The notes below the pieces were generated by a model. That model was not told where the DNA came from and did not search any database. It saw only the letters and a list, made by a program, of their open reading frames with translations. A program made the position numbers and the translations under genes. Source: Candidatus Sumerlaeaceae bacterium (GTDB taxonomy: Bacteria > Sumerlaeota > Sumerlaeia > Sumerlaeales > Sumerlaeaceae). From it: a stretch of DNA of 64,000 nucleotides. Position 1 is the first letter of the stretch, and each line of letters begins with the position of its first letter. This document shows, piece by piece, positions 35,062-50,877 of this stretch. The DNA lies in assembly GCA_049968255.1 (NCBI GenBank), contig JBMFRB010000004.1, forward strand, positions 128,001-192,000. The letters run 5' to 3'.

Positions 35062-36915
35062 ATGGATAGAGACAAACTTATCAAAGCACTCTCCGCAAAA
35101 GCAAATAAGCTTCGCATTCACTCCGTTCGCTCAACATCTGCAGCAGGGTCAGGACACCCCACCACGTGCCTCTCCTGCGCGGAAATTGTGGCGACCCTCT
35201 TCTTCCACGAGATGCGTTACGACACGAAAAACCCGCAAAATCCGCTGAGCGACCGCTTCGTGCTTTCGAAAGGACACGCTGCTCCAATCCTTTACGCAGC
35301 ATGGGCGGAAGCAGGATTCATGCCCGTCGAAAAGTTGCTTACGCTGCGGCGTATTGATTCCGATCTCGAAGGGCATCCGACGCCACGGTTGCCGTTCGTG
35401 GATGTGGCAACTGGCTCCCTAGGTCAGGGACTTGGCGCAGCGGTAGGAATGGCGCTCAACTCCAAGTACCTCGACAAAACAAACTATCGAACCTATGTTT
35501 TGCTTGGCGACGGCGAGGTTGCAGAAGGCGCGGTCTGGGAGGCGGCCGAGCTCGCCAGCTACTACAAGCTTGATAACCTTGTTGCGATTGTGGACGTCAA
35601 CCGCCTCGGCCAGAGCCAGCACACCATGCTCCAGCACCAGCTCGACGTCTATAAAGCGCGCTTCGAAGCGTTTGGCTGGGAAGCCGGCACTGTTGATGGC
35701 CACAACGTCGGCCAGCTTCTCGACGCGTTTGCCAAAGCCCGCACGGTGAAGGATAAACCCTTTGTCATTGTGGCAAAAACTTTCAAGGGCCGCGGAGTAA
35801 GTTTTGCCGAAGACAAAGATGGCTGGCACGGCAAACCTTTCAAAAAGGGCGAAGAGGAAGAGCGAGCAATCGCGGATATCATGGCGCTTGGCATTGAAGG
35901 CGACGAAGGTCTAACCCCCCCGCCACCTCCCCAGAAAGCACTCCCAGCGAGCTACAAAAAAGAAATGGCATCACCGAGCTACAAAATCGGCGAAATGGTT
36001 GCGACCCGCGAGGCTTACGGCGAGGCTCTCGTCAAGCTCGGCACGGCCGATCCCACAGTCGTCGTCCTCGACGGCGACACCAAGAACTCTACTTATTCGG
36101 AGAAATTCCTTAAAGCCTATCCCGACCGCTTCTTCGAGGGGTTCATCGCCGAGCAAAACCTCATTAGTATGGCAACGGGGCTTGCCGCTCGCGGCAAAAC
36201 AGTGTTTGCAAGCTCGTTTGCTGTCTTCCTGAGCCGCGGTTTCGATCAGGTGCGGATGGCAGGAATCTCGCAGTCAAACATCAATCTTTGCGGATCGCAC
36301 GTCGGTGTCTCTATTGGCGAAGATGGGCCTTCGCAAATGGGGCTTGAAGACCTTGCACTCTTCCGCGCAATCCCCAATTCCATTGTCCTTTATCCATCGG
36401 ACGCAGTTGCTACCGAACGGGCGGTCTCCCTGGCTGGCGCATATCCCGGCATCGCCTACATTCGCACCTCCCGCCCCAAGACCCCTGTGATTTATCCTCA
36501 TGACGAGGTATTCGCCGTGGGTAAAGCCAAGATCGTCCGCAAAAGCGATCGCGATGCGCTCACTATCGTCACCGGTGGCGTCACTCTTTTCGAAGCATTG
36601 AAAGCTGCGGACGAACTTGCGAAACAGGGCATCATGGTGCGCATCGTGGACATCTTCTCGGTCAAGCCTCTGGATCGCGAAACGCTTATCGAGTGCGCCA
36701 ACGCAACCGGTCAGGTGATTCTGACTGTCGAGGATCATTATCCCGAGGGCGGCATCGGTGAGGCCATCGCAGCGGCTCTGGCTGATACATCCACGCGAAT
36801 CGAGCGCCTGGCTGTTCGCGAGCTTCCACGGTCAGGTAAGCCGGAAGAATTGTTAGCAAAATATCAAATCGATGCTCAGGCGATAGAGAAAAAGGTGAAG
36901 GAGCTTGTGCGATGA
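35062..36915 (+). CDS. tkt: Transketolase (single chain)
   Basis: GSGHPT, DRFVLSKGH, EGHP, GDGEVAEG..WEA, IAEQN, GEDGPSQM. Confidence 0.95.
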   Translation: MDRDKLIKALSAKANKLRIHSVRSTSAAGSGHPTTCLSCAEIVATLFFHEMRYDTKNPQNPLSDRFVLSKGHAAPILYAAWAEAGFMPVEKLLTLRRIDSDLEGHPTPRLPFVDVATGSLGQGLGAAVGMALNSKYLDKTNYRTYVLLGDGEVAEGAVWEAAELASYYKLDNLVAIVDVNRLGQSQHTMLQHQLDVYKARFEAFGWEAGTVDGHNVGQLLDAFAKARTVKDKPFVIVAKTFKGRGVSFAEDKDGWHGKPFKKGEEEERAIADIMALGIEGDEGLTPPPPPQKALPASYKKEMASPSYKIGEMVATREAYGEALVKLGTADPTVVVLDGDTKNSTYSEKFLKAYPDRFFEGFIAEQNLISMATGLAARGKTVFASSFAVFLSRGFDQVRMAGISQSNINLCGSHVGVSIGEDGPSQMGLEDLALFRAIPNSIVLYPSDAVATERAVSLAGAYPGIAYIRTSRPKTPVIYPHDEVFAVGKAKIVRKSDRDALTIVTGGVTLFEALKAADELAKQGIMVRIVDIFSVKPLDRETLIECANATGQVILTVEDHYPEGGIGEAIAAALADTSTRIERLAVRELPRSGKPEELLAKYQIDAQAIEKKVKELVR

Positions 36916-39764
36916 CTAAGGCAGCGAAAAACGCTTTGCAGGCTCTCTCCGACTGTGGGCAAAGCGTATGGCTGGATTTCATCAGCCGCGAGCTCATTGC
37001 AAGCGGCGAACTCAAACGGCTTGTCACACAAGTCGGCGTTCGCGGGGTTACTTCCAATCCCGACATCTTTCAGAAAGCAATTGCTGGGAGCTCGCTTTAT
37101 GACAAGGCGATCGAGCGTCTGGCCCGCACCGGTCACTCGACGCTCGAAATTTACGAGACCTTAGCTGTTGAAGACATCCGCAAAGCCGCCGACATCCTCC
37201 GCCCTGTCTGGCAAAAAACGCGTGGCGGCGATGGCTACATCTCGCTCGAAGTTTCGCCGCACCTTGCCTACGATGCGGTGGCGACAATTGACGAAGCGGA
37301 GAGACTTTGGGCCACGGTCGGACGGCCAAATCTCATGATCAAAATCCCAGCAACGCCAGCTGGGCTTGTGGCCATCGAGGAACTCATCGCACGTGGCATC
37401 AACGTCAACGTCACGCTGCTCTTCTCCATTGCCGTTTACAAAAAGGTCATGGAAGCCTATACGGCTGGTTTGCAACGCCGCGCGAAAAGAAATTTGCCGC
37501 TCGACTGTGTGAGGTCTGTCGCAAGCTTCTTTGTCAGCCGCCTTGATACGCTCGTGGATAGCCTGCTGGCCTCACGAATTACAAATCTTCCCGAAATAGC
37601 TGCGACGACCGCTTCTCGCGTCTTCGGAAAAACGGCGGTGGCATGCGCCAAACTATCTTATCTTGAATACGAGCAATTTTTCTCTTCTGCGCGCTTCAAA
37701 AAGCTCGCCGCGCGCGGGGCCCAAACCCAGCGTCCCCTTTGGGCAAGCACGAGCACGAAGAATCCACTCTACGACCCCCTTGCTTACGTGACGCCTTTGG
37801 TTGGTCGCGACACAGTGAACACCCTGCCTCTTGCCACGCTAGAAGCGCTGCTCGCTGGGACGCTTCCAACGGCTGAGACTATTCACGAAGGAGTCGCAGA
37901 GGCCAGAGCAGTCATCGAAACGCTGAGTTCGTTGAGCATTGACATCGAATCAGTAGCCACTCAACTGCTCGAGGACGGCGTCGCGCGCTTTATCCGCTCC
38001 TTTGATGCTCTGCTTTCCGCCATAGCCGAAAAACGTCTGCACGCTCTTGGCCTTGCCAGGCTGCAATCCGAATCGCCCCAAGACTTATCCGCGTCGGTTC
38101 CGGCGGTCCAGCGTGCGGTATCAGAGCTGCGCTATCTTCCGCGGCTGTGGAAAAAGGACGCGTCGCTGTGGACCGAAAACGAAGACGTCGCCCAAAAAAT
38201 CGTGAATCGGCTGGGCTGGCTCGAGTCGCCGTTCAAGATGCTTTCGGCCGGTCGTCAGATCCAGCGTTTTGCAGCGGATGTGGCTAAAGCCGGGTTCACC
38301 CACGTCGTGCTTCTGGGAATGGGTGGCAGCAGCTTGTGCCCCGAGGTTTGCTCCAAGACTTTTGGATCGCGTACGGGCTATCCCAAACTCATCGTCCTGG
38401 ACAATACGTCGCCCGACGCGGTACGTGCCGTCGAGAAATCCATAGACCTCAAGAAAACCCTCTTCATCCCCGCAAGTAAGTCCGGCACAACCATCGAGAC
38501 GAACTCCTTCTATAAATACTTTAGGCTGAAGCTCGCAAGTCTCGGCATTAAAAACATCGGCGAACACTTTGTCGCTATCACCGATCCAGGTACACCTCTT
38601 GCAGAGCTGGGACGCCAAGAACGCTTTCGTGCTGTTTTTGAGAATCCAGCCGATATTGGTGGGCGCTTCAGTGCTCTCTCGTTCTTCGGGCTCGTGCCGA
38701 TGGCGCTGCTTGGCCTTGATATCGCCCAGCTTCTCGCCCGCGCCATCGATTTCGCCCTGGATCGCGGGACGGTTATCAACAGCACCTCGGATTCAGCCGT
38801 GCGTCTTGGTGTGTTCTTGGCAGAGTGTGCCAAGGTCGGTCGTGACAAGCTGACCTTTGTTATCTCGGATGTGTTCGCGTCATTTGGCGATTGGGTTGAG
38901 CAACTCGTCGCAGAAAGCACGGGAAAATGTGGCATAGGGATTCTGCCTGTGGTAGGGGAGCGTGTAATCCCTGCCATCTCCTGTGGTCCTGACCGAGCAT
39001 TTGTTTCAATGCGCCTAGCCAAGGAGAAGGAAGATCCGCGGCTTTCCGCCATCGAAAAGCGCGGCGCGCCTGTGGTTCGCATCGTATTGCCCGATCTCGT
39101 GGACCTTGGAGTCGAGTTTTTCCGGTGGGAGGTAGCAACAGCAATCGCCGGAGCTCTTCTTCGCATCAATCCTTTCGACGAGCCAAATGTTACCGAAAGC
39201 AAGCAGAACACCGCGCGTCTCCTCGAGGCCTTTACAGAGCAAGGCAAGTTGCCCGTGCCCCCCACACAGATCGAAAGCCGCGGCCTACGTCTGACGTTCT
39301 CAAAGGCCGCGATGCAAATCGTTGGCAGCAAAATCTCCCGGCCAAAGGATGCTCTGCGCGCCCTTTTACTTTCTGCAGAACCGCCTGACTATGTGGCGCT
39401 ACTCGTTTACGCCCAGAGCCAGAAGCGTTTGGACGCAAAGCTCGCCGCCCTCCGGTCGGCGATCCAAAAAGCGACGGGTTGTGCGACAACTTTAGGATAC
39501 GGTCCCCGCTACCTTCACAGCACTGGCCAATTGCATAAGGGCGGTCCGAACACTGGCGTGTTTCTCATGATCGTGGCGGATCCAGCAAAAGATGCAGAGA
39601 TTCCAGGCGAAGCCTACTCATTTGCGACCCTGGCCCGCGCGCAAGCCCTGGGAGATTTCGAGGCCCTCGCTGAGCATGGCCGTCGCGCTATCCTGGTTCA
39701 GGTCGGCGAGGATGCCGCAGCGGCTGTAACGGAACTCTTGGCTTTGGCTGGCCTCGACGACTAA
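36912..39764 (+). CDS. Bifunctional transaldolase/glucose-6-phosphate isomerase
   Basis: N-terminal GQSVWLD, GVTSNP, MIKIPAT, SFFVSR, LWASTSTK; C-terminal GMGGSSL, IGGRFSALS, EQLVAESTGK, LHSTGQLHKGG. Confidence 0.94.
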   Translation: MTKAAKNALQALSDCGQSVWLDFISRELIASGELKRLVTQVGVRGVTSNPDIFQKAIAGSSLYDKAIERLARTGHSTLEIYETLAVEDIRKAADILRPVWQKTRGGDGYISLEVSPHLAYDAVATIDEAERLWATVGRPNLMIKIPATPAGLVAIEELIARGINVNVTLLFSIAVYKKVMEAYTAGLQRRAKRNLPLDCVRSVASFFVSRLDTLVDSLLASRITNLPEIAATTASRVFGKTAVACAKLSYLEYEQFFSSARFKKLAARGAQTQRPLWASTSTKNPLYDPLAYVTPLVGRDTVNTLPLATLEALLAGTLPTAETIHEGVAEARAVIETLSSLSIDIESVATQLLEDGVARFIRSFDALLSAIAEKRLHALGLARLQSESPQDLSASVPAVQRAVSELRYLPRLWKKDASLWTENEDVAQKIVNRLGWLESPFKMLSAGRQIQRFAADVAKAGFTHVVLLGMGGSSLCPEVCSKTFGSRTGYPKLIVLDNTSPDAVRAVEKSIDLKKTLFIPASKSGTTIETNSFYKYFRLKLASLGIKNIGEHFVAITDPGTPLAELGRQERFRAVFENPADIGGRFSALSFFGLVPMALLGLDIAQLLARAIDFALDRGTVINSTSDSAVRLGVFLAECAKVGRDKLTFVISDVFASFGDWVEQLVAESTGKCGIGILPVVGERVIPAISCGPDRAFVSMRLAKEKEDPRLSAIEKRGAPVVRIVLPDLVDLGVEFFRWEVATAIAGALLRINPFDEPNVTESKQNTARLLEAFTEQGKLPVPPTQIESRGLRLTFSKAAMQIVGSKISRPKDALRALLLSAEPPDYVALLVYAQSQKRLDAKLAALRSAIQKATGCATTLGYGPRYLHSTGQLHKGGPNTGVFLMIVADPAKDAEIPGEAYSFATLARAQALGDFEALAEHGRRAILVQVGEDAAAAVTELLALAGLDD

Positions 39765-39848: not shown

Positions 39849-40949
39849 GTGAGGATTTTCGTCGATGCCCGGTGCGTGCGTCCTGGACGCACCGGGGTAG
39901 GGACTGCAACCGAAGCTTGGATACGCGCTCTGGCTGAGTCCCATCCCGAGGATCAGCTCACAGTTCTCATACTTTCGCGCTCTCCCAGCGAGCGGTTCTT
40001 TGGACCAAATATCCATCTGCTTGCCACACGGGTTGATTACGAGTGGCATCCGCTGGCCGAGCTATACTCACACTGGCTCCTACCCCGCCTCGCTGCTCGC
40101 ACACGTGCCCAGGTCTTCTGGGGGCCTGCTTTCGCCGTCCCATCCACCCCAGCTCCCTTTCCACGTGTGGTCACCGTGCATGATCTCTCGGTCTTTGATC
40201 ATCCGTCCGACTACCCACCCGCCTTTGGTGCTTATCTTCGGTGGCGAATCCAGCGCGCAGTGCGTGCAGCCGACGGTATCCATTGCGTGAGCCACGACAC
40301 GCGCCAGCGTATTGCTGCGCGTTGGCCCGAAACGGCGAAGAAATGCAGAGTCATTCCCTGTGGTGTCGATGACTTCTTTTTCGCTGACTCTCCTGTCAGT
40401 GATCCTTTCCCCCCCTTGCCGAACTTTTTCATCCTCACCGTTGGGGCCGGCCAGCCCCGCAAAAACGCCCAATTCGGAGCAGAAATTGTGCGCCTTCTGC
40501 GCGCAAAGTTTCGCCTGCCGTGTGAGTACGTGGTGGTGGGGCACGATGCCAGCCTTCCCCCCTGGGTGCATCAGTATCCCGTACGTGCTAAGCGTGAGCT
40601 AGTCCCCTTTTATAAGCGTGCGGCCCTGCTGCTTATGCCGAGTACTCACGAGGGTTTCGGCATCCCTGCGCTCGAAGCCATGGCGGCAGGTTGTCCGGTT
40701 GCGGTCTCGAATCGCGGAGCGATGCCTGAAGTGGTCGGCGACGCTGCCGTGCTCATCTTCGCCCTAGAGGACGGCCCTGAAAAGGCAGCAGCCCGCCTGG
40801 CGGAGATTTTCCAAGACAAGGATTTGATCGAAACCAAACGTGAGCTTGGCCGAAAGCGCGCGTATGAATTCACATGGAGAAGCTCGGCTATCGCATTGAG
40901 ACAATTTTTCGAAGACCTCGTGCAAAAGAAGGAAGCTGGTCGTGGCTGA
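39849..40949 (+). CDS. Glycosyltransferase, GT4 family
   Basis: VVTVHDL, PRKN, EGFGIPALEAMAAGCPV. Confidence 0.9.
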   Translation: MRIFVDARCVRPGRTGVGTATEAWIRALAESHPEDQLTVLILSRSPSERFFGPNIHLLATRVDYEWHPLAELYSHWLLPRLAARTRAQVFWGPAFAVPSTPAPFPRVVTVHDLSVFDHPSDYPPAFGAYLRWRIQRAVRAADGIHCVSHDTRQRIAARWPETAKKCRVIPCGVDDFFFADSPVSDPFPPLPNFFILTVGAGQPRKNAQFGAEIVRLLRAKFRLPCEYVVVGHDASLPPWVHQYPVRAKRELVPFYKRAALLLMPSTHEGFGIPALEAMAAGCPVAVSNRGAMPEVVGDAAVLIFALEDGPEKAAARLAEIFQDKDLIETKRELGRKRAYEFTWRSSAIALRQFFEDLVQKKEAGRG

Positions 40950-42327: not shown

Positions 42328-43242
42328 TCACTCCAACTCTTCATGTCGCCTGGCGAAAGCGAGCGCCACTTCACACGTCCCCACGTGAATGTCCACAGTA
42401 TCGCTGACTTTGCGTGCGTAGCCGCCGGCCAGCACCACCAATACCGGGATTCCGCGAAGCCTCGCTTCACCTATCGCTAAATGATCGCGCTCGCGCAGAC
42501 CTTCTTTTGTGAGGCGCAAAGCCCCAAGCTGATCATCGTAATAAGGATCAGCTCCCGCCACGTACACGAGAAGCTCAGGTCTATGGCGTTCAATGGCTGG
42601 CAGCATTGCGTTGCGCAACGCGTCGAGATATTCGCGATCGCCTGCAAAATCCTCCAGGCCGATATCGCAGTCCGAGCGTTGTTTCAGAGGATAATTGTTT
42701 TCCTGGTGAATGGAGAGCGTGAACACGCTCGCATCATGTTCGAAGATGTGTGCGGTTCCGTTGCCCTGGTGGAGGTCACAATCCACCACCATGGCGCGAC
42801 GAATGCGCCCCTCTCTCTGCATCACGCGGATAGCGACCGCTATGTCATTGATATAGCAAAAGCCCTCCGCACGCGCAGCGAACGCATGGTGGAATCCACC
42901 GCCGAGATGCACGCACAGATGCGGCGGGTCCGCGAGCGCAATACGCGCCCCAAGGATCGAACCACCCGCAGCGAGTTTATAGGCGTGCATAATGGGACGC
43001 GTGAGGGGCAGTTCGCTGTAGCGCGTGCGTTCAGTCCATCGGAGATTTTCAAGGTCCTGCAGGTATTCTGCCGTGTGGACGCTCAACAATTGCTCGCGTG
43101 TGGCTGGTTCGGGCTCGAGGAAATCGTCTGGCGAAGCAAGCCCCCGCGCCAGCAGCTCGTCACGAATCAGACGATACTTTGACGTCGGAAAGACGTGCGG
43201 CCCAATATCGACCTCATACTGCGGTGAGAAAATGAATCTCAT
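42328..43242 (-). CDS. Histone deacetylase family protein
   Basis: HVFPTSKY, GGGFHHA, GFCYIND, DCDLHQGNGT, AGAD, AGGY. Confidence 0.93.
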   Translation of the reverse strand: MRFIFSPQYEVDIGPHVFPTSKYRLIRDELLARGLASPDDFLEPEPATREQLLSVHTAEYLQDLENLRWTERTRYSELPLTRPIMHAYKLAAGGSILGARIALADPPHLCVHLGGGFHHAFAARAEGFCYINDIAVAIRVMQREGRIRRAMVVDCDLHQGNGTAHIFEHDASVFTLSIHQENNYPLKQRSDCDIGLEDFAGDREYLDALRNAMLPAIERHRPELLVYVAGADPYYDDQLGALRLTKEGLRERDHLAIGEARLRGIPVLVVLAGGYARKVSDTVDIHVGTCEVALAFARRHEELE

Positions 43243-43378
43243 GCGCCTTTTTTGCCCGAACGGCCATTGACGCTGCAACTGTGTTTCGCGCACGTGAAGA
43301 GTATTGACATCCAGAGGCTAACCCCGCAGTAAAGCGGTTCTCTGATGTTGTCACTTGATCTTTCGCGGTAGGTGTAAA

Positions 43379-44632
43379 ATGGCTAAAGCGATCATCTGCA
43401 CGGTCGGGACGGTGTTTGAAGGACGCGAGAACATCCTCAGTGTCCTAGCCGACGAAATCAAGCGCCTCGAACCCGCCTATGTTGCCTTCATCGTTTCGAA
43501 AGAAAGTCGCAATGCTGCAGAGAAAATTGCAGCAAAGGCAGGGCTGTCGGAGAATTCTGTCACATATGTAGCGCTCGAAACGCCTCACGACCTGAACGAA
43601 GTTTTTGCTCGCACGAACGAAACCATTCGCCACCTGCTGGCCGCTGGCTTTTCGCATGCGGACATATCGCTCAACTACACGAGCGGAACCAAGGTTATGG
43701 GCAGCGGCGCAGTTCTTGCCGCAGTGTTCAACCAATGTTCCGAACTGCGCTACATTTACGAAGGGGGAGCCGAAGGCGATCGTGTCATCATCACCCGTCC
43801 GTTGGCAGTCAGCGCCTACCGCGATCTGCTCTTGGCAAGCCGCCTGATCGAAGAATTGCGGTTCCAGTCGGCATCGGACCTCCTCGGGCGCATTGACGCA
43901 TCGCTTCTTTCTGCCTATGATGTCACGGTACTCAATTCACTCAGAAAGATCGCTGAGGCCTACAATGCTTGGGACACTTTCAATCCGGCGCATTTTGTCG
44001 CTGTCATGAGCGATCTTCCTTCGTCCGTAGACGCGTGCAAAAAATTCATGGTAGATTCTGGTACACTCGGGCTGCTAGCCCAGCTCGCGAGCGATCTCTC
44101 CCAGGAAAATTACTCGCCCCTGATCTTTGCCGACATGGTGAACAATGCAGTGCGCCGCATGCTCGAAGGCAAATATGACGACGCTGTCGCCCGCCTTTAC
44201 CGTGCCCTCGAAATGCTCGCGCAGTGTGTGCTCCGACGTTACGGAATCAACACCGACGATGTGGACACTCGCAAAATCCCGCCTCGTTATCGCGTCAACT
44301 TCGAAGCATTGCGTTCGATGGACGACGGAATGGTACGCATCGGCATGCGCAAGGCCTATGAGTTGTTAGCGATTCTGGAAGCGCCGCTCGGCTTGCGTTT
44401 TCAAAGCATGAAGGAGCTCCTGCCACTCCTTCAGTCGCGCTCAAAATCCATTCTCGCTCACGGCACCAGCCGGATTGCCAAGAGCGATAGCGAGCAATTC
44501 CTCTCGCATGCGCTCGACCTCTTCACGAGCGAGATTCCCGACTTTTGCAACATATGCCACAACCTGCAATTCCCGTGGCTACGTGGCAATTACGAGTGCT
44601 CGATGATCCTAAATCGTGCATCCCAGGCGTGA
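43379..44632 (+). CDS. CARF-HEPN protein, Csm6-like (TIGR02710/Cas02710 family), orphan
   Basis: N-terminal CTVGT and NYTSGTKVM (CARF); WDTF; NAVRR...YDDAVARLYRALE; HEPN-like RSKSILAHG. Confidence 0.85.
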   Translation: MAKAIICTVGTVFEGRENILSVLADEIKRLEPAYVAFIVSKESRNAAEKIAAKAGLSENSVTYVALETPHDLNEVFARTNETIRHLLAAGFSHADISLNYTSGTKVMGSGAVLAAVFNQCSELRYIYEGGAEGDRVIITRPLAVSAYRDLLLASRLIEELRFQSASDLLGRIDASLLSAYDVTVLNSLRKIAEAYNAWDTFNPAHFVAVMSDLPSSVDACKKFMVDSGTLGLLAQLASDLSQENYSPLIFADMVNNAVRRMLEGKYDDAVARLYRALEMLAQCVLRRYGINTDDVDTRKIPPRYRVNFEALRSMDDGMVRIGMRKAYELLAILEAPLGLRFQSMKELLPLLQSRSKSILAHGTSRIAKSDSEQFLSHALDLFTSEIPDFCNICHNLQFPWLRGNYECSMILNRASQA

Positions 44633-46015
44633 AGCCAAGGAGGGGGCACACTTTGTCACATCGCCCGCCCCGAGAGTGAGAATCATGTCCCCGGGTTTGG
44701 CGTTCGCAGCGACAAAATCTTCAGCTTTATCCAGCGCCCCCGCGTAAAACGCGGCCGGGTGCCCATGACGCGCAAGACTCTCCAGAATAAGCTCCGACGT
44801 CACTCCTACGATCGGCTCCTCGCTCGCCGGATAGATGTCCGCTAGCACCACAACGTCAGCATGGTCAAAGGCCTTGCCAAATTCATCTGCCAAGGACTGC
44901 GTGCGCGAATAGCGGTGCGGCTGAAACAGTGCCACAATGCGTCCACGATGAGCTGCCCGCGCGGCAGCAAGCGTAGCCCGGATCTCTGTGGGATGATGGG
45001 CGTAATCGTCAACGATCGTGAATTGATCGTTTTTGCCCACGATTTGAAAGCGGCGTCGGACTCCACGGAACTGCTCAAGAGCGTCGATAATCGAGGCCAC
45101 CGGTAGGCCAATTTCAAGGCCAAGCGCAAAGACGGCGAGCGCATTCAGGACATTGTGCTTGCCAGGCACTGACAGCCGGACGCTTCCCAGCTCTTCGTCG
45201 TTGCGGAAAACACTGAATCGGCAAGTCCCCCCTTGCACTTCTTTGATTACGCCGCGTAGCGAAGCTTCTGAAGAAAAACCGTAGCTGGTGACGTTCACAA
45301 CACCATTCCGGATTTTTCCGTGCAAGCCAAAGCCTAAGCTCTCGAGGACCCTGCGAACCCCATCATCATCGCAGCAGGCTATCAAAACTCCGCCCGGCTT
45401 AATGTTTCTCACGTGTGCCCGGAAAACCTCGTAAACCTGGTCGATATTCTCGTAAAAGTCCGTGTGGTCCAACTCAATGTTTGTGATGATAGCAAATTCC
45501 GGGTGAAAATTCACTAACGAGCCGTCACTCTCGTCGGCCTCAGCGACAAACCACTCGCTGCTTCCCCCACGTGCATTGGCTGCTTCCGTGTTAATGGTGC
45601 CGCCAACCGCAAACGAAGGCGCTAACCCTGCCAGCGTTAGCAGTGTCGCCGCCATCGAGGATGTTGTTGTTTTGCCATGGGTTCCCGCCACAGTGATGCC
45701 GCGGCGTGCATCCAAAAGCTCAGCCAGTTTCTCGGATCGGTGACGGATCGGTATTCCTAACCGTCGCGCTTCGATAATCTCTGGGTTCGTTGGCTTGATG
45801 GCGGTGCTCACGACCACTTCAGCTGCGCCGTGCACATTGTCTGCACAGTGCCCGATGAAAATCCTTGCGCCAGCGGATTGAAGACTTTTCGTGTAGGACG
45901 ACTCTTTGATGTCCGAACCGCTAACACGAACCCCCTCCTGCAGCAAAAGCTGAGCAATGCCGCTCATTCCCACACCGCCGATTCCGACGAAATGCACGAA
46001 ACCTTGGTCAGTCAT
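44609..46015 (-). CDS. murC: UDP-N-acetylmuramate--L-alanine ligase
   Basis: HFVGIGGVGMSGIA, AGTHGKTTT, EADESD, DDYAHHPTE, FQPHRYSRT. Confidence 0.97.
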   Translation of the reverse strand: MTDQGFVHFVGIGGVGMSGIAQLLLQEGVRVSGSDIKESSYTKSLQSAGARIFIGHCADNVHGAAEVVVSTAIKPTNPEIIEARRLGIPIRHRSEKLAELLDARRGITVAGTHGKTTTSSMAATLLTLAGLAPSFAVGGTINTEAANARGGSSEWFVAEADESDGSLVNFHPEFAIITNIELDHTDFYENIDQVYEVFRAHVRNIKPGGVLIACCDDDGVRRVLESLGFGLHGKIRNGVVNVTSYGFSSEASLRGVIKEVQGGTCRFSVFRNDEELGSVRLSVPGKHNVLNALAVFALGLEIGLPVASIIDALEQFRGVRRRFQIVGKNDQFTIVDDYAHHPTEIRATLAAARAAHRGRIVALFQPHRYSRTQSLADEFGKAFDHADVVVLADIYPASEEPIVGVTSELILESLARHGHPAAFYAGALDKAEDFVAANAKPGDMILTLGAGDVTKCAPSLASRLGCTI

Positions 46016-46067
46016 ATCATCCTCGTTATCATGTTTGGATGTAAGAACGCGTGGTTCGGCGAGTTTA

Positions 46068-47516
46068 CTATCTCGTTTGGCGGTTTTCGCCACCGAGTGC
46101 CCGTCGGATCAAGGAACTATCGTCGCGAAGGGCAAACAACAGGGTGAGAATGCAACCGCAGAGCACGCCGACTCCCACACGTAAAGTGTCCGGAATCGAC
46201 GTATTCAGCACGATAAGCGGAACAGATGACGCCAAACCGACGATGCTCAACCGAAACAGTGTTCCAAGTCCTAGTTTCACACCGCGGCGTAAGAGCGCAA
46301 CGGAATAGAGAGTTCCGGACACGCACTCGGTCGCGAGGAGCGCCAACGCAGCCCCGTTGAGTCCCCACAGACGAATTCCCACGACATTGAGGCACACGTT
46401 CAGCACGAGTGCAACCATCGCGCGAACCATCACGATTTTTTCTGCATTGAGGCAGATAAGGATATTCGCAGAGATAATTTGATAATAAATAAGCACAAGC
46501 CAGACCCCATAAAACCGAAAGACGGACGATGCCGCGAGATACTCCCGTTTGGCGACCAACTGAATGATCCAGTGAGGCGCAAAGACAAACACCGAGCAAA
46601 GAATCAATGCCATGTATCCCAAATATCGCGTGAGAAACTGATAATAACGCGCAACAAGGGCTCGATCGTTGTGATGGCGCGACAAGAACGGAATGAGAGC
46701 GTTCACCACAGCCGTTGGCAGAAATTGTAGCGCTTCCGGAAGACGCGATGCCGCGTTATAATATCCCACAGCTTGCTCGCCCAACATTTTCGATAACGCA
46801 ATAGTCCCGGTGCTCATGTAAAGCGTCCCAATAATGTTGATAACAGCAAAAGGAATCGACCGCCGAAGCGCCTCGAGGATCCCACGACTATCCCACCGAT
46901 GAAGTAAACTCAGCTGAAGAAACATCGGGATACTCACAGCCAACGCCAAGCACTCGGCACCCGCGGCACCAATATGAACAGCTGCAATTTTGGGCACAGT
47001 CAGATGACCGGCTTGAAGGAGGACAATGAGACCGGCCAAAATCAGGAATCGCCCAAGGACCGAGAAGATCGCGTCAAATTCCATCCGATCATAAGCGCGG
47101 AAGAGAAACTTGAACAACGTCGCAAAGCTATCGAGCACCGTGAACACATAAAAGAAGCCAACAACCGCTAAGGTGGTCCGCGAATAGCCTGCGGCCCAAA
47201 GAATAAGGGCACCGATACACCCCACGGGGACGACCAAAGCCAATCGGAGATTCAGCACATTACCGAAAACGGTCTGAGAACGTTGGCGCTCGCTCCGGCA
47301 GCGGGCTACCTCACGAACGATGTATCCACGGACCCCAAACTCCGTGAAAAGCGCCAACAGAAAACTAAGGCGCAACGCAAGTTGGAAAAGGCCATTCTCT
47401 TCGACGGTGACATGTTTTTGGATTATCACAAGAGTCAAAAGCGACAGGAAGCGGGTGCCGGCTTGGGAAATGGTCAGCGCCGTTGCCCCCTTCAAGTGCT
47501 GTCTGGCTCGGCTCAT
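46068..47516 (-). CDS. Polysaccharide/oligosaccharide flippase (Wzx-like)
   Basis: About 12-14 TM helices; FTEFG, VGYYNAASR, GLNGAALA. Confidence 0.85.
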   Translation of the reverse strand: MSRARQHLKGATALTISQAGTRFLSLLTLVIIQKHVTVEENGLFQLALRLSFLLALFTEFGVRGYIVREVARCRSERQRSQTVFGNVLNLRLALVVPVGCIGALILWAAGYSRTTLAVVGFFYVFTVLDSFATLFKFLFRAYDRMEFDAIFSVLGRFLILAGLIVLLQAGHLTVPKIAAVHIGAAGAECLALAVSIPMFLQLSLLHRWDSRGILEALRRSIPFAVINIIGTLYMSTGTIALSKMLGEQAVGYYNAASRLPEALQFLPTAVVNALIPFLSRHHNDRALVARYYQFLTRYLGYMALILCSVFVFAPHWIIQLVAKREYLAASSVFRFYGVWLVLIYYQIISANILICLNAEKIVMVRAMVALVLNVCLNVVGIRLWGLNGAALALLATECVSGTLYSVALLRRGVKLGLGTLFRLSIVGLASSVPLIVLNTSIPDTLRVGVGVLCGCILTLLFALRDDSSLIRRALGGENRQTR

Positions 47517-48763: not shown

Positions 48764-49276
48764 TCAATTTTGGGGCGGTTCATTATTGTGAACCGATGCC
48801 GCGGCGTCGCCGCTCCGGTCAGCCGAAGCCTTCTCTTTAGCGCGGCATTCCTCGAAAGTGTTGCGAATGCGTTGCAATTGATCTTTTTCTGCCGCGAGAA
48901 GTTCGAGCAGCACGGCTCGGATTTCTGGGAAGCCATTTGCTTCAGCAACCCTCTGCTCAAACTCCGTGACTGCTCGCTCCTTGTGCTTGATCAGCAGTTG
49001 CCCTAGGTAATCAAGCCGGAGGTAATTAAGATCCGCAGCACTTTCATCGAAAAGCATGGGATCCGGAATTCCCCCCAGCGCAGCGATGATCCGCGACAGA
49101 AGCTTGGCGTGTTCCCTTTCTTCTCGACGTAGCACGATAAGCAAAGACCAAAGGGGGGCAAAGTGCTCCGGAATATATGGCGACGCATTGGTGATGTATT
49201 CGACGAACGAATAAGTCTTTCGGCTGAGATCGGATTGAAGTCCCTGCAAGAGCTTTTCCTTTGGGTCTTTTGTCAT
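48764..49276 (-). CDS. Ferritin-like four-helix-bundle protein
   Basis: EEREHA motif and helical pattern; 4-bp overlap with nuoN. Confidence 0.6.
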   Translation of the reverse strand: MTKDPKEKLLQGLQSDLSRKTYSFVEYITNASPYIPEHFAPLWSLLIVLRREEREHAKLLSRIIAALGGIPDPMLFDESAADLNYLRLDYLGQLLIKHKERAVTEFEQRVAEANGFPEIRAVLLELLAAEKDQLQRIRNTFEECRAKEKASADRSGDAAASVHNNEPPQN

Positions 49277-50877
49277 AGGCGTCCTTCCGTGGGGCTCTCC
49301 ATCACTCGGACACGTGTCACGAGATGGGCGCTTATAGGGGTCCCCAAAGCTTGACGTCCCAGCCTCACGCTTTTTTGCGCGAGATCGGTCAACGGCTGCC
49401 AATATAGCTGAATCGCCAAAATGAGTAGCGCGGCAGTTGCCAACGCAATGCGCGCGGCCTTGGATGGTTTGCACGGTGCCAGATCCGCGGATGGTGTGTA
49501 GAATGCCATCAGCCGAATGATGCCGATGTAATAATAGAGCGAGATCACACTATTGGCCAGGGCGATGAGAATGAGGACGTAGTAGAAGCTGGCTATTGGC
49601 GACGTCATGCCGCGCTTGACCAGTGCCATAAACAGAAAGAATTTCCCCATGAAGCCGCCACTGGGTGGCAGGCCAATAAGCGACCACAGCAGCATGGCGA
49701 TGCTGGCAGCCAAAACGGGCGACTCGTGCACCAAACCGCGAAATCCGCCAACGTCGAATGTGCCTCTGTCCGCATGAATCACTTGGGCAGCGAAAAACAA
49801 TCCGAGATTCGCAATAGCATAAACGATAAAGTAAAAAAGAATCGCTTCATAGGCCTCGGTATTGTGTGCAACCACGGCAGCGATCATATAGCCAGCATGC
49901 GCAATGGAGGAGTAGGCGAGCAGTCTCTTGATATCACACTGCCGGAGCGCAACCAAATTGCCCAAGGTCATTGTCAGGATCGCGACAATCCACAGCAGGC
50001 TAAGCAAAGCGAAATGCATCAGCTTGGGAAGGGCATTTTCTCCGTGCGAGAACAACGGAACTCCCAAGAGAGGAGCCGCGAAGCGCAAAAAAAATCCGAA
50101 ACCGGCAGCCTTGGAAACCACCGATAAGTAAGCTGTGACTGGCGTAGGCGATCCCTGGTAGACGTCCGGTGCCCAGAAGTGAAAGGGAACCAAGCCCATT
50201 TTGAAAGCAAATCCTGCCAGCAAGAGCACCATGACAAGCAGGAAGCTCGGCGAAGGTTGGACGGCTATCTTGGCCACATCCTCGAGGTCCAGCGAACCGA
50301 CCATGCCGTACAGCAGGCTCAACCCATAAAGCATAACTCCCGAAGCAACAGCACCAAACAGCACGTACTTGAGCGAGGACTCGACGCTTTCGCGTCGGTT
50401 TTTTGCATAGCCGGCCAGTACGTACGAGCTAAGGGACAAGGTTTCGAAGCTAAGATAAAACAGCACCAAGTTACGACTTGCTACGAGAAAAGACGCTGCC
50501 AGCGTTGCAGTGAGTAGCAGCGCATAATATTCTCCGACGCGCCTGCCGGCCAGTTCCGTGCTTGTGCGTGACGTTGTGACGACCACAAAAGTCGCAATGA
50601 GAAAGAGTAAGGCAAAGAAGAGCGAGAAGGGATCAAGAACCAGCGCGTTCCATCCAAGCACAATGGGCTCGGCAAGAACTTTAGGCCAAAACTTGGTCAA
50701 GGCAGTGGCACTTGCCAAGCAAGCCAGGAGCGCAATCCAACTGACCCGGTGAGATTTCGCGGCGCTCTGGAACCAGTCAACCACGAGCACGAGGATGATT
50801 CCAACCACCAGAATCAGGTGAGGCACCAGAGCATTCAGCCCGCGCAAGGTCTCGGCCACGCTCGTCGCTAGTGACAT
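49273..50877 (-). CDS. nuoN: NADH-quinone oxidoreductase subunit N
   Basis: ESSLKY, FKMGLVPFHFWAPDVYQGSPT, KRLLAYSSIAHAGY. Confidence 0.93.
   Translation of the reverse strand: MSLATSVAETLRGLNALVPHLILVVGIILVLVVDWFQSAAKSHRVSWIALLACLASATALTKFWPKVLAEPIVLGWNALVLDPFSLFFALLFLIATFVVVTTSRTSTELAGRRVGEYYALLLTATLAASFLVASRNLVLFYLSFETLSLSSYVLAGYAKNRRESVESSLKYVLFGAVASGVMLYGLSLLYGMVGSLDLEDVAKIAVQPSPSFLLVMVLLLAGFAFKMGLVPFHFWAPDVYQGSPTPVTAYLSVVSKAAGFGFFLRFAAPLLGVPLFSHGENALPKLMHFALLSLLWIVAILTMTLGNLVALRQCDIKRLLAYSSIAHAGYMIAAVVAHNTEAYEAILFYFIVYAIANLGLFFAAQVIHADRGTFDVGGFRGLVHESPVLAASIAMLLWSLIGLPPSGGFMGKFFLFMALVKRGMTSPIASFYYVLILIALANSVISLYYYIGIIRLMAFYTPSADLAPCKPSKAARIALATAALLILAIQLYWQPLTDLAQKSVRLGRQALGTPISAHLVTRVRVMESPTEGRL

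Follow-up and report, generated by a model that had tools for sequence, protein, structure and literature searches.

Csm6 proteins are ribonucleases (RNases) that are switched on by cyclic oligoadenylate (cOA) from the Cas10 of type III CRISPR systems. To our knowledge, little has been established about the signals that CARF domains recognise away from CRISPR-Cas loci. What, then, does a Csm6-like protein do when its gene stands alone among housekeeping genes? The question is raised by a 417-amino-acid CARF-HEPN protein encoded in a stretch of 64,000 nucleotides (hereafter the window) from a Candidatus Sumerlaeaceae bacterium (assembly GCA_049968255.1, contig JBMFRB010000004.1, positions 128,001 to 192,000). 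The protein belongs to the TIGR02710 family and has the Csm6 fold, its genome holds no detectable cOA synthase, and in the Sumerlaeota class its gene is decoupled from type III CRISPR-Cas. The Sumerlaeota copies form a clade that conserves the core of the ligand pocket and the Arg/His pair of the RNase site, and in which the mobile loop of the pocket and the Asn beside the catalytic Arg have been replaced clade-wide. The explanation towards which we lean, with moderate confidence and partly by inference, is that the protein would be a domesticated, dimeric, ligand-gated RNase, with a changed ligand or changed gating, that answers a signal not made by a Cas10 in its host.

An intact CARF-HEPN gene of the TIGR02710 family

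The gene and the domains of its product are as follows; TtCsm6, the Csm6 of Thermus thermophilus, is the closest relative of solved structure.

43379..44632, plus strand: CARF-HEPN coding sequence, 417 amino acids, stop codon included (open reading frame, family hidden Markov models, TtCsm6-like fold)
43379..43813, plus strand: CARF (Rossmann-like) sensor domain, residues ~1-145 (model secondary structure, CARF profiles, alignment to TtCsm6, Cam1 and Crn1)
43814..44104, plus strand: helical middle domain, called the helix-turn-helix (HTH) domain in the TtCsm6 paper, residues ~146-242 (model helices 142-241)
44105..44518, plus strand: HEPN domain, PF09670 match at residues 243-380 (Pfam)

The reading frame at 43379-44632 (+) is open through 417 codons and a stop. 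Its ATG start fits the N-termini of 116 homologues in the alignment (consensus MxxALIxTVGT), and an in-frame TTG lies at 43355, eight codons 5' of that ATG. The TIGR02710 hidden Markov model (HMM; 'CRISPR-associated CARF protein') matches residues 26-381 with 167.2 bits (cut-off 83.9) and aligns over positions 6-380 of its 384, and PF09670 ('Csm6 HEPN domain') matches at 102.7 bits against a cut-off of 27. The PADLOC profile CARF1--CARF_HEPN spans residues 1-401 at 228 bits, and the Pfam CARF models reach the protein only below threshold (PF23400, 18.7 bits versus 24.6). With the curated whole-protein cut-off passed and a three-domain fold of the Csm6 type present, the protein is a member of TIGR02710 by homology. 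A preliminary description, made from the sequence, had reported an intact 417-residue CARF plus HEPN protein whose HEPN motif reads RSKSILAHG where the family usually has RNxSILAHG, and had proposed the TIGR02710 and PF09670 searches as a check; the reading frame, the domain call and the motif all hold.

The gene is single-copy in its genome and has the same GC content as its flanks (0.55). A mobile-element origin was considered and rejected: the comparison with phages gave no match, and the best plasmid matches are Thermus megaplasmid genes with only 28% identity.

No source of cyclic oligoadenylate detected in the genome

Six-frame searches at E ≤ 0.001 were run on the assembly, which is 95.75% complete and comprises 3.12 Mb in 31 contigs. 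No match to Cas10/Csm1, Cas10/Cmr2, RAMP, SMODS (CD-NTase) or mCpol models was found in the whole genome, and the same searches were positive in control genomes. Cas1 was matched only on another contig, in a type I-E operon that holds the sole cas genes found, and no repeat array of at least three copies occurs on any of the 31 contigs. The preliminary description had stated that no cas10, other cas gene, CRISPR array or cyclase accompanies the gene and had proposed a genome-wide check for cas10 and CD-NTases. That check (Csm1, Cmr2 and SMODS models) detected none, so the statement stands for cas10, array and cyclase; the other cas families were not searched singly in the window.

The type I-E operon (locus L004, C5:173-6583) lies outside the window, 172 bases from the end of its contig. 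Its order is Cas8e (with a weak Cas11e match in its C-terminal part), Cas7e, Cas5e, Cas6e, Cas1e and Cas2e, and no cas3 was recognised among the eight open reading frames (ORFs) scanned.

The gene and type III systems occur independently in the class

We compared 61 genomes of the class, the genome studied here included, and counted as a type III marker any RAMP match or a Cas10 model above its cut-off; sub-threshold hits on positions 1 to ~100 of the Csm1 model (~20 bits versus a cut-off of 170, as in G002) were left out of the count. A CARF-HEPN homologue is present in 28 of the 61 genomes. Type III markers occur in 15 of the 61, namely in 7 of the 28 carriers (G001, G004, G015, G034, G046, G050 and G057) and in 8 of the 33 non-carriers, so that carrying the gene bears no relation to having type III. 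The remaining 21 carriers have no marker. Among them are the same-genus genome G002 and G006, a single contig of 3.29 Mb with a 68%-identical copy, so that the locus is kept in relatives lacking type III, a point that the preliminary description had wished to see checked. The association that defines an ancillary type III effector, being encoded or co-occurring with a cOA-producing Cas10 complex, was not found.

Where carriers do have type III loci, those loci may bring CARF proteins of their own. When 57 of the 85 ORFs in the carriers' type III loci were scanned, such a protein was seen inside the locus in three of these seven carriers: a second TIGR02710 protein between cmr3 and cmr4 in G034, a TIGR02584 Csm6 in G057 and a TIGR02619 protein in G001.

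These results bear on one alternative explanation, that the protein is a displaced canonical type III effector, an 'effector in waiting' for cyclic tetra-adenylate (cA4) made by a Cas10 elsewhere, be it in the unassembled part of the genome or in cassettes that the lineage gains and loses. We regard this as improbable. Markers are present in the seven carriers named above, and within the ORFs scanned the type III loci of G004 have no recognised CARF effector; the genome studied here is not closed, and the residues equivalent to those that bind cA4 are conserved. Set against these points are the marker-free majority of carriers, single-contig and same-genus genomes among them, the equal frequency of type III with and without the gene, and the CARF proteins that the type III loci of G034, G057 and G001 bring themselves. 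Two results given below count against it as well, namely a purifying selection that matches that on murC in type III-free genomes and the clade-wide loss of the adenine-reading loop.

Canonical relatives, which served as a control, behave differently. For 70 loci of TIGR02710 homologues from other phyla we searched the fetched flanks, within 10 kb, with profiles built from type III genes. RAMP or Cas10 genes were found in the flanks of 45 of the 70 loci, 40 of which had both; many of the 25 loci with neither are on short contigs. The same search found neither at any of 20 Sumerlaeota-class loci (~8 kb searched to either side). At the level of whole genomes, 43 of 50 with canonical copies have RAMPs, or 42 of 49 without the Sumerlaeota-class genome G057. 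On plasmid pTT27 of T. thermophilus HB27, for example, a TIGR02710 gene (WP_024119929.1) is followed by cas1, cas2, cas10 and csm2-5. Shah et al. 2018 (PMC6546367), in the part available to us, also name TIGR02710 as one of the profiles to which the largest accessory clusters in type III cassettes match.

One sub-clade of these relatives, from Nitrospiraceae (L069-L072 and L074; the 'RN' group), has no RAMP or Cas10 in the flanks at three of its six loci, and only distant ones (6-8 kb) at two. This may be a further lineage in which the gene is losing its tie to type III loci.

Predicted fold and dimer

An AlphaFold2 model built with an alignment of 117 sequences has a predicted local distance difference test score (pLDDT) of 94.8 and a predicted template-modelling score (pTM) of 0.86. 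Its best Foldseek match is TtCsm6 with cA4 (8jh1_A; E 2e-12, template-modelling score 0.70 over the full length), at 17-19% sequence identity to TtCsm6. TtCsm6 chains are the best structural matches altogether (0.63-0.70), and Enterococcus and Streptococcus Csm6, Cam1, Csx1 and Can2 follow with lower scores. Among solved structures the family profile matches TtCsm6 at E 1.3e-9, and its CARF part matches Cam1 (8t64, E 2.3e-5) and, weakly, Sso2081 (E 0.09). A single-sequence search of the same structures was set aside in favour of the profile, having returned chance matches only (E ~0.3). In the model the CARF domain has six beta strands (residues 4-9, 34-39, 61-65, 96-102, 122-128 and 134-139).

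Prediction with two copies gave a homodimer score of 0.79, the best of three controls reaching 0.00. Three runs agreed in at least 94% of contacts, with a partner pLDDT of at least 89. Of 30 proteins whose solved structure is a pair of one chain, 20 reach the mark applied to this score, and of 23 solved as single chains one does; because Csm6 dimers have already been solved, the pass may only reflect likeness to them. The predicted interface includes residues 105 with 105', 125, 358-365 (the HEPN motif) and 147-202 of the middle domain. The model thus supports a predicted homodimer in which the two protomers would share a CARF pocket and a HEPN site.

Conserved cores and clade-specific changes

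Residue conservation was counted in the 117-row family alignment and in a separate alignment of 91 rows, comprising 25 copies of the Sumerlaeota-class clade and 66 others. TtCsm6 residues were placed by profile alignment, which maps K137 to K105, T133/G135 to T101/G103, Y161 to Y125 and R415-N416...H422 to R354-S355...H361, and TtCsm6 G177-T178-E179 to the canonical 'GTE' loop residues. The motifs concerned are the following.

43406..43414, plus strand: CARF motif I, G10-T11-V12, canonically G-T-G (91-row alignment)
43679..43693, plus strand: CARF motif II, T101-S-G103-T-K105, equivalent to TtCsm6 T133/G135/K137 (translation TSGTK, profile alignment)
43751..43801, plus strand: Y125, equivalent to TtCsm6 Y161, then a shortened hairpin loop in place of the canonical mobile G-T-E loop (alignment)
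44438..44464, plus strand: HEPN R-X6-H motif, R354-S-K-S-I-L-A-H361-G362, without the canonical Asn (translation RSKSILAHG)

CARF domains are reportedly defined, in work of Makarova from 2014 and 2020, by two motifs: motif I, rich in Ser and Thr, follows strand 1, and motif II, of the form [DN]x[ST]xxx[RK], follows strand 4. The segment N99-Y-T-S-G-T-K105 together with G10-T11 agrees with this definition, motif I being weaker than canonical (GTV versus GTG). The R-X4-6-H signature of HEPN RNases is present as R354-X6-H361, with R and H in 25 of 25 clade copies, and the Asn that directly follows the catalytic Arg in HEPN domains of the Csm6 type is absent (Ser355).

The core of both sites is under strong constraint. 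G10, G103, T104, K105, M107, Y125, R259, R272, R275, E278, R354, H361 and G362 are kept in all 25 clade copies, S43 in 24 and T101 in 23. Across all 91 rows K105, G103, R259, R272, R275 and E278 are invariant and G10 is found in 25/25 and 66/66 copies; Q282 is invariant in the 117-row alignment and present in 89 of 91 rows of the other (25/25 in the clade, 64/66 elsewhere). In the 117 rows the HEPN Arg occurs in 116 and the His and following Gly in 117.

The clade differs from its relatives around these cores. Position 12 of motif I is Gly in 65 of 66 others and never in the clade (T, V, P, D or S; G 0/25). The Asp of motif II, found in 66/66 others, is kept in 2 of 25 clade copies (N in 16, H in 6), and the residue after the motif II Lys is Val in 24/25 versus Ala in 66/66. 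Between Y125 and P141 the clade has a stretch of 14-17 residues in 21 of its 25 copies, where all 66 others have 21-24, and the loop Glu, universal in the others (66/66), is retained in 3 of 25. The Asn after the catalytic Arg is missing from the entire clade (0/25; R 12, S 6, G 5, T 1, D 1) and present in 65/65 others, one further copy being truncated; in the 117 rows the residue at this position is most often N (49 rows), followed by S (25), R (13), A (13), G (10) and T (3). Eight of the 25 clade copies have an Asn one position later (position 356, 'RRN'), and in these the HEPN motif may have shifted.

A contrast within one genome is provided by G034, where the TIGR02710 paralogue embedded in a type III-B operon reads 'RNNSILVHG' and 'DFTGGTK' and the orphan copy reads 'RRNLVLAHG'. 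The two paralogues lie at L133 (G034:C240:1775-3118) and L043 (G034:C12), the one with canonical 'RN' in the type III-B operon and the orphan with 'RRN' among housekeeping genes.

What these changes may mean can be judged from TtCsm6, as characterised in the part of PMC10897365 available to us. TtCsm6 has three domains. Its K137 is essential for cA4 binding, which K137A abolishes; T59 and S60 of motif I, Y161 and N164 are required in cA4 cleavage; and two residues of the mobile loop, R173 and E179, recognise the second adenine of the ligand. Its RNase activity is abolished by R415A, by N416A and by H422A, each on its own. In the apo protein, H422 of one protomer is bonded by N416 of its partner, and R415 is held by E332. 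Motif I of the Sumerlaeota protein would correspond to TtCsm6 G58-T59-S60, an equivalence inferred from its position after strand 1 and not from the alignment. Because the Asn is needed for activity in TtCsm6 and latches its apo state to the His of the other protomer, loss of the Asn beside the catalytic Arg in the Sumerlaeota clade points to altered gating or a weaker RNase.

Taken further, this loss would lead to a second alternative, an RNase-attenuated or dead derivative whose CARF domain still binds a nucleotide and which acts as a ring nuclease, a sponge or a non-catalytic RNA-binding or regulatory protein. The effect of N416A in the closest solved relative (PMC10897365, in the part available) and the absence of the equivalent Asn from 25/25 clade members are what one would expect of such a protein, as is the invariance of Y125 and CARF motif II, residues of the TtCsm6/Crn1 type for binding and cleavage. 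An idle RNase site is, however, hard to reconcile with the invariance of R354, H361, G362 and E278 in 25/25 copies, and the later Asn of the 'RRN' copies suggests a shift of the motif rather than decay. As to ring cleavage, the motif I hydroxyls that serve it in TtCsm6 (T59/S60) are down to one in this protein (T11-V12) and to none in a 'GLPGD' sub-clade. We consider this alternative unlikely, if less so than a displaced type III effector.

Descent and genomic neighbourhood

In a maximum-likelihood tree of the 91 rows (of 104 loci, 4 were dropped for matching ≤300 query residues and 10 as duplicates), all 25 Sumerlaeota-class copies fall on one side of a branch of length 0.37 with a Shimodaira-Hasegawa-like approximate likelihood ratio test (SH-aLRT) support of 100. 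Within the clade, each of the families f1, f2, f13 and f14 forms a cluster. Phyla are mixed among the other 66 copies, where Bathyarchaeia, for instance, group with a Patescibacteria-labelled bin and Chloroflexota with Pseudomonadota. The Sumerlaeota clade has a single origin and has been inherited vertically under purifying selection. Identities to G002, G006 and G004 are 86, 68 and 55% for the CARF-HEPN protein and 83, 69 and 54% for MurC, and the clade evolves as slowly as murC. Against G002 the CARF-HEPN gene has a nonsynonymous difference (pN) of 0.084 and a synonymous difference (pS) of 0.82, with pN values of 0.101 for murC, 0.124 for the HDAC-family gene and 0.130 for nuoN; with synonymous sites saturated (pS 0.69-0.85), pN and pS are given without a ratio, except against G004.

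One copy, that of G007 (L011 / L029, G007:C160:61389-62600), contains one in-frame TAA and is either a recent pseudogene or the product of an assembly error.

The immediate neighbours of the gene in the window are these.

42328..43293, minus strand: gene of the histone deacetylase (HDAC) family, divergent neighbour (Hist_deacetyl, PF00850, 211 bits; kept beside the CARF-HEPN gene in five genera)
43294..43378, no strand: 85-bp spacer from the HDAC-family gene to the CARF-HEPN gene, presumably with both promoters (coordinates; gene arrangement)
44609..46093, minus strand: murC-like Mur ligase gene with three Mur domains, convergent neighbour (Pfam; synteny in five genera)

The position between an HDAC-family gene and murC, already given in the preliminary description, is confirmed by these Pfam matches. 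The 3' ends of the CARF-HEPN gene and murC overlap by 24 bases, and the wider surroundings hold ispD, ispF, a transaldolase-PGI fusion, glycosyltransferases and nuoN. The order HDAC-family gene, CARF-HEPN gene, murC is kept in G002, G006, G004, G003 and G007, which represent five genera, at protein identities of 86 to 50%, and the longer block from ispD-ispF to nuoN is kept in the nearest of these five genomes. A sigma-70-like consensus scan found no site in 43294-43378, so the placement of promoters in the spacer follows from gene arrangement only; a scan of 43100-44900 for promoters and terminators returned one promoter-like site, inside the gene, and no terminator, which is not above shuffled sequence.

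Across the class the gene has several contexts, each stable within its family: HDAC/murC in f1 and otherwise SecY/Map in G005, isocitrate dehydrogenase in f2 and f6, PRAI/PTA (phosphotransacetylase)/PilM in f14 and MiaA in G060. No cas gene adjoins it in any of these other contexts.

The diversity of contexts bears on a third alternative, namely that the RNase is constitutive or regulated by protein, the CARF domain serving only for dimerisation and activity being set by expression level or a protein partner, as RtcA and RtcB act on RtcR. The CARF domain of RtcR offers a precedent (PMC9650030, PMC7790460, in the parts available), and loss of the Asn-His latch of the apo state could loosen auto-inhibition. 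The differing contexts nevertheless share no conserved neighbouring partner, and the pocket residues (K105, G103, T104 and Y125 invariant, S43 in 24/25) argue for a retained small-molecule site. Of the alternatives considered here we find this one the least credible, and very unlikely.

Some further genes near these loci were recorded in passing. In the window, 36912-39764 (+) encodes a 950-residue protein, conserved at 80% identity in the same-genus genome, in which a transaldolase domain (PF00923, residues 19-370) is joined to one of phosphoglucose isomerase (PF00342), and 39849-40949 (+) a group-1 glycosyltransferase that also matches PF20706 ('GT4 in conflict systems') at 38.5 bits versus a cut-off of 26. 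A 236-residue ORF beside nuoN (48764-49474, -) has no Pfam match and is conserved in three related genomes (38-60% identity). In f14 relatives the CARF-HEPN gene is directly adjoined by ORFs of 250-310 amino acids that have no Pfam match, and two of these share its strand and overlap it (L040:8899-9744 (+), L041:9316-10245 (-), L038:5134-5898 (+), L039:7107-7931 (+) and L036:6471-7226 (+)).

A proposed mechanism

The preliminary description had offered two alternatives, a trans-acting effector for a distant type III locus or a domesticated sensor, ring nuclease or RNase that responds to a non-CRISPR signal. The absence of a detectable cOA synthase, the counts of 7/28 versus 8/33, synteny with vertical descent, and the changes in loop and HEPN motif favour the domesticated sensor or RNase. 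The distant type III locus is disfavoured, and keeps some room because the assembly is 95.75% complete.

We propose that the departure of the clade from type III CRISPR-Cas loci dates to an ancestor of the Sumerlaeota class, and that the gene would since have descended vertically, single-copy, among housekeeping genes. In a first step, supported by the model and by conservation, two protomers would pair, so that their CARF domains share a pocket on the two-fold axis (K105/K105', T101, G103 and Y125) and their HEPN domains an RNase site (R354 and H361). In a second, a small nucleotide ligand would enter the CARF pocket and close it. Motion transmitted through the helical middle domain might then free R354 from E278 and turn on cleavage of single-stranded RNA, the likely outcome being growth arrest or a stress response. 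The ligand would not be made by Cas10 in the Sumerlaeota host and would probably be other than cA4, because the G-T-E loop, the GTG of motif I and the Asp of motif II are changed across the clade.

Several observations weigh against a domesticated, ligand-gated RNase with a new signal. Since N416A abolishes the RNase of TtCsm6, the clade may cut RNA poorly or not at all. The equivalents of the core cA4 contacts K137, Y161 and T133 are intact, so that cA4 may still be the ligand, and ~4% of marker genes are absent from the assembly. The gene was not found in 33 of the 61 class genomes, including 5 of the 12 of its own family, and is therefore dispensable; 'housekeeping' describes its neighbourhood and not its role. 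No shared partner or ligand-making neighbour appeared across contexts among the ORFs nearest to the gene (58 of 112 scanned). No candidate maker of the ligand emerged either: the only adenine-nucleotide cyclase searched for was the DAC domain (cyclic di-AMP synthase), GGDEF and class III cyclases not being searched, and DAC does not discriminate because it is present in 60 of 61 class genomes with or without the CARF-HEPN gene. Among public sequencing runs, no RNA run with the gene sequence is listed, and one DNA run holds 0.44 of the sampled words.

A more specific version of the proposal, which we put forward tentatively and hold to be possible rather than probable, is that the clade is a CRISPR-independent sensor of a second messenger or of RNA damage, in which the remodelled pocket would bind an endogenous adenine nucleotide and gate a growth-arresting HEPN RNase. 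Candidate ligands would be cyclic di-AMP (c-di-AMP), or an oligoadenylate or RNA fragment ending in a 2',3'-cyclic phosphate. If so, a CRISPR effector would have given rise to a bacterial counterpart of the 2-5A/RNase L logic.

Whichever ligand is involved, the clade is a clean test case, with one vertical origin, decoupling from type III, and binding and catalytic cores under strong purifying selection, and the replaced residues are exactly those that in the solved relative read the second adenine of cA4 and latch the RNase. The identity of the ligand would show either cOA-like signalling without Cas10 or a CRISPR effector rewired to a housekeeping nucleotide, and an R-X6-H site without Asn probes whether this Asn is truly essential for HEPN catalysis. 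For genes of the Sumerlaeota lineage the pipeline label 'CRISPR-associated' is misleading.

Comparison with known systems

In literature on TIGR02710, on orphan CARF-HEPN proteins and type III systems, and on Sumerlaeota and CRISPR, we found no description of the Sumerlaeota clade or of a Csm6-type motif without Asn; such genes may be listed in the census of Makarova et al. 2020 or in its supplements. According to the part of the 2025 CRISPR-Cas classification paper available to us (PMC12669027), homologues of CARF abound outside CRISPR-Cas loci.

One of these is RtcR, the CARF transcription activator of an RNA-repair operon, which resembles the Sumerlaeota protein in having a CARF domain outside CRISPR-Cas, in chromosomal physiology. 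The likeness is at the level of the fold: the CARF domain of RtcR is divergent, and its effector is a sigma-54 AAA+ activator and not HEPN. In the available parts of two accounts (PMC9650030, PMC7790460), the RtcR CARF domain is described as CRISPR-independent and controlled by proteins (RtcA/RtcB) and RNA ends, not by Cas10 products. The stand-alone ring nuclease Crn1 (of the Sso2081 type) and the membrane effector Cam1 share the CARF match and motif II with the Sumerlaeota protein; both lack HEPN, whereas the Sumerlaeota protein keeps a full HEPN domain with its R and H.

Canonical TIGR02710 proteins (WP_024119929.1; the type III-B paralogue of G034) are of the same family and length, with the same invariant residues, at 27-39% identity over the full length. 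They lie in or beside type III operons, and RN, D-[FY]-TSGTKA, GTG and the G-T-E of the loop are each present in 65 or all 66 of them; the Sumerlaeota clade differs from them in all of these.

TtCsm6 (TTHB152; PDB 5FSH, 8JBB, 8JBC and 8JH1) is a cA4-activated, self-limiting CARF-HEPN RNase of a type III-A CRISPR-Cas system. The Sumerlaeota protein differs from it at the sequence level (17-19% identity), in having Ser at the equivalent of N416, in having one motif I hydroxyl in place of T59-S60, and in a loop that is ~6-9 residues shorter than the mobile loop of TtCsm6 (R172/R173/E179) and without Glu; its gene also lies away from type III loci, in a genome in which no Cas10 was found. What the two proteins have in common is the CARF domain, helical middle and HEPN fold, the TxGxK motif, the Tyr after strand 5, an R-X6-H motif ending in HG, a YRALE helix with a Glu holding the Arg, and a homodimer, predicted for the Sumerlaeota protein, with both sites on its axis.

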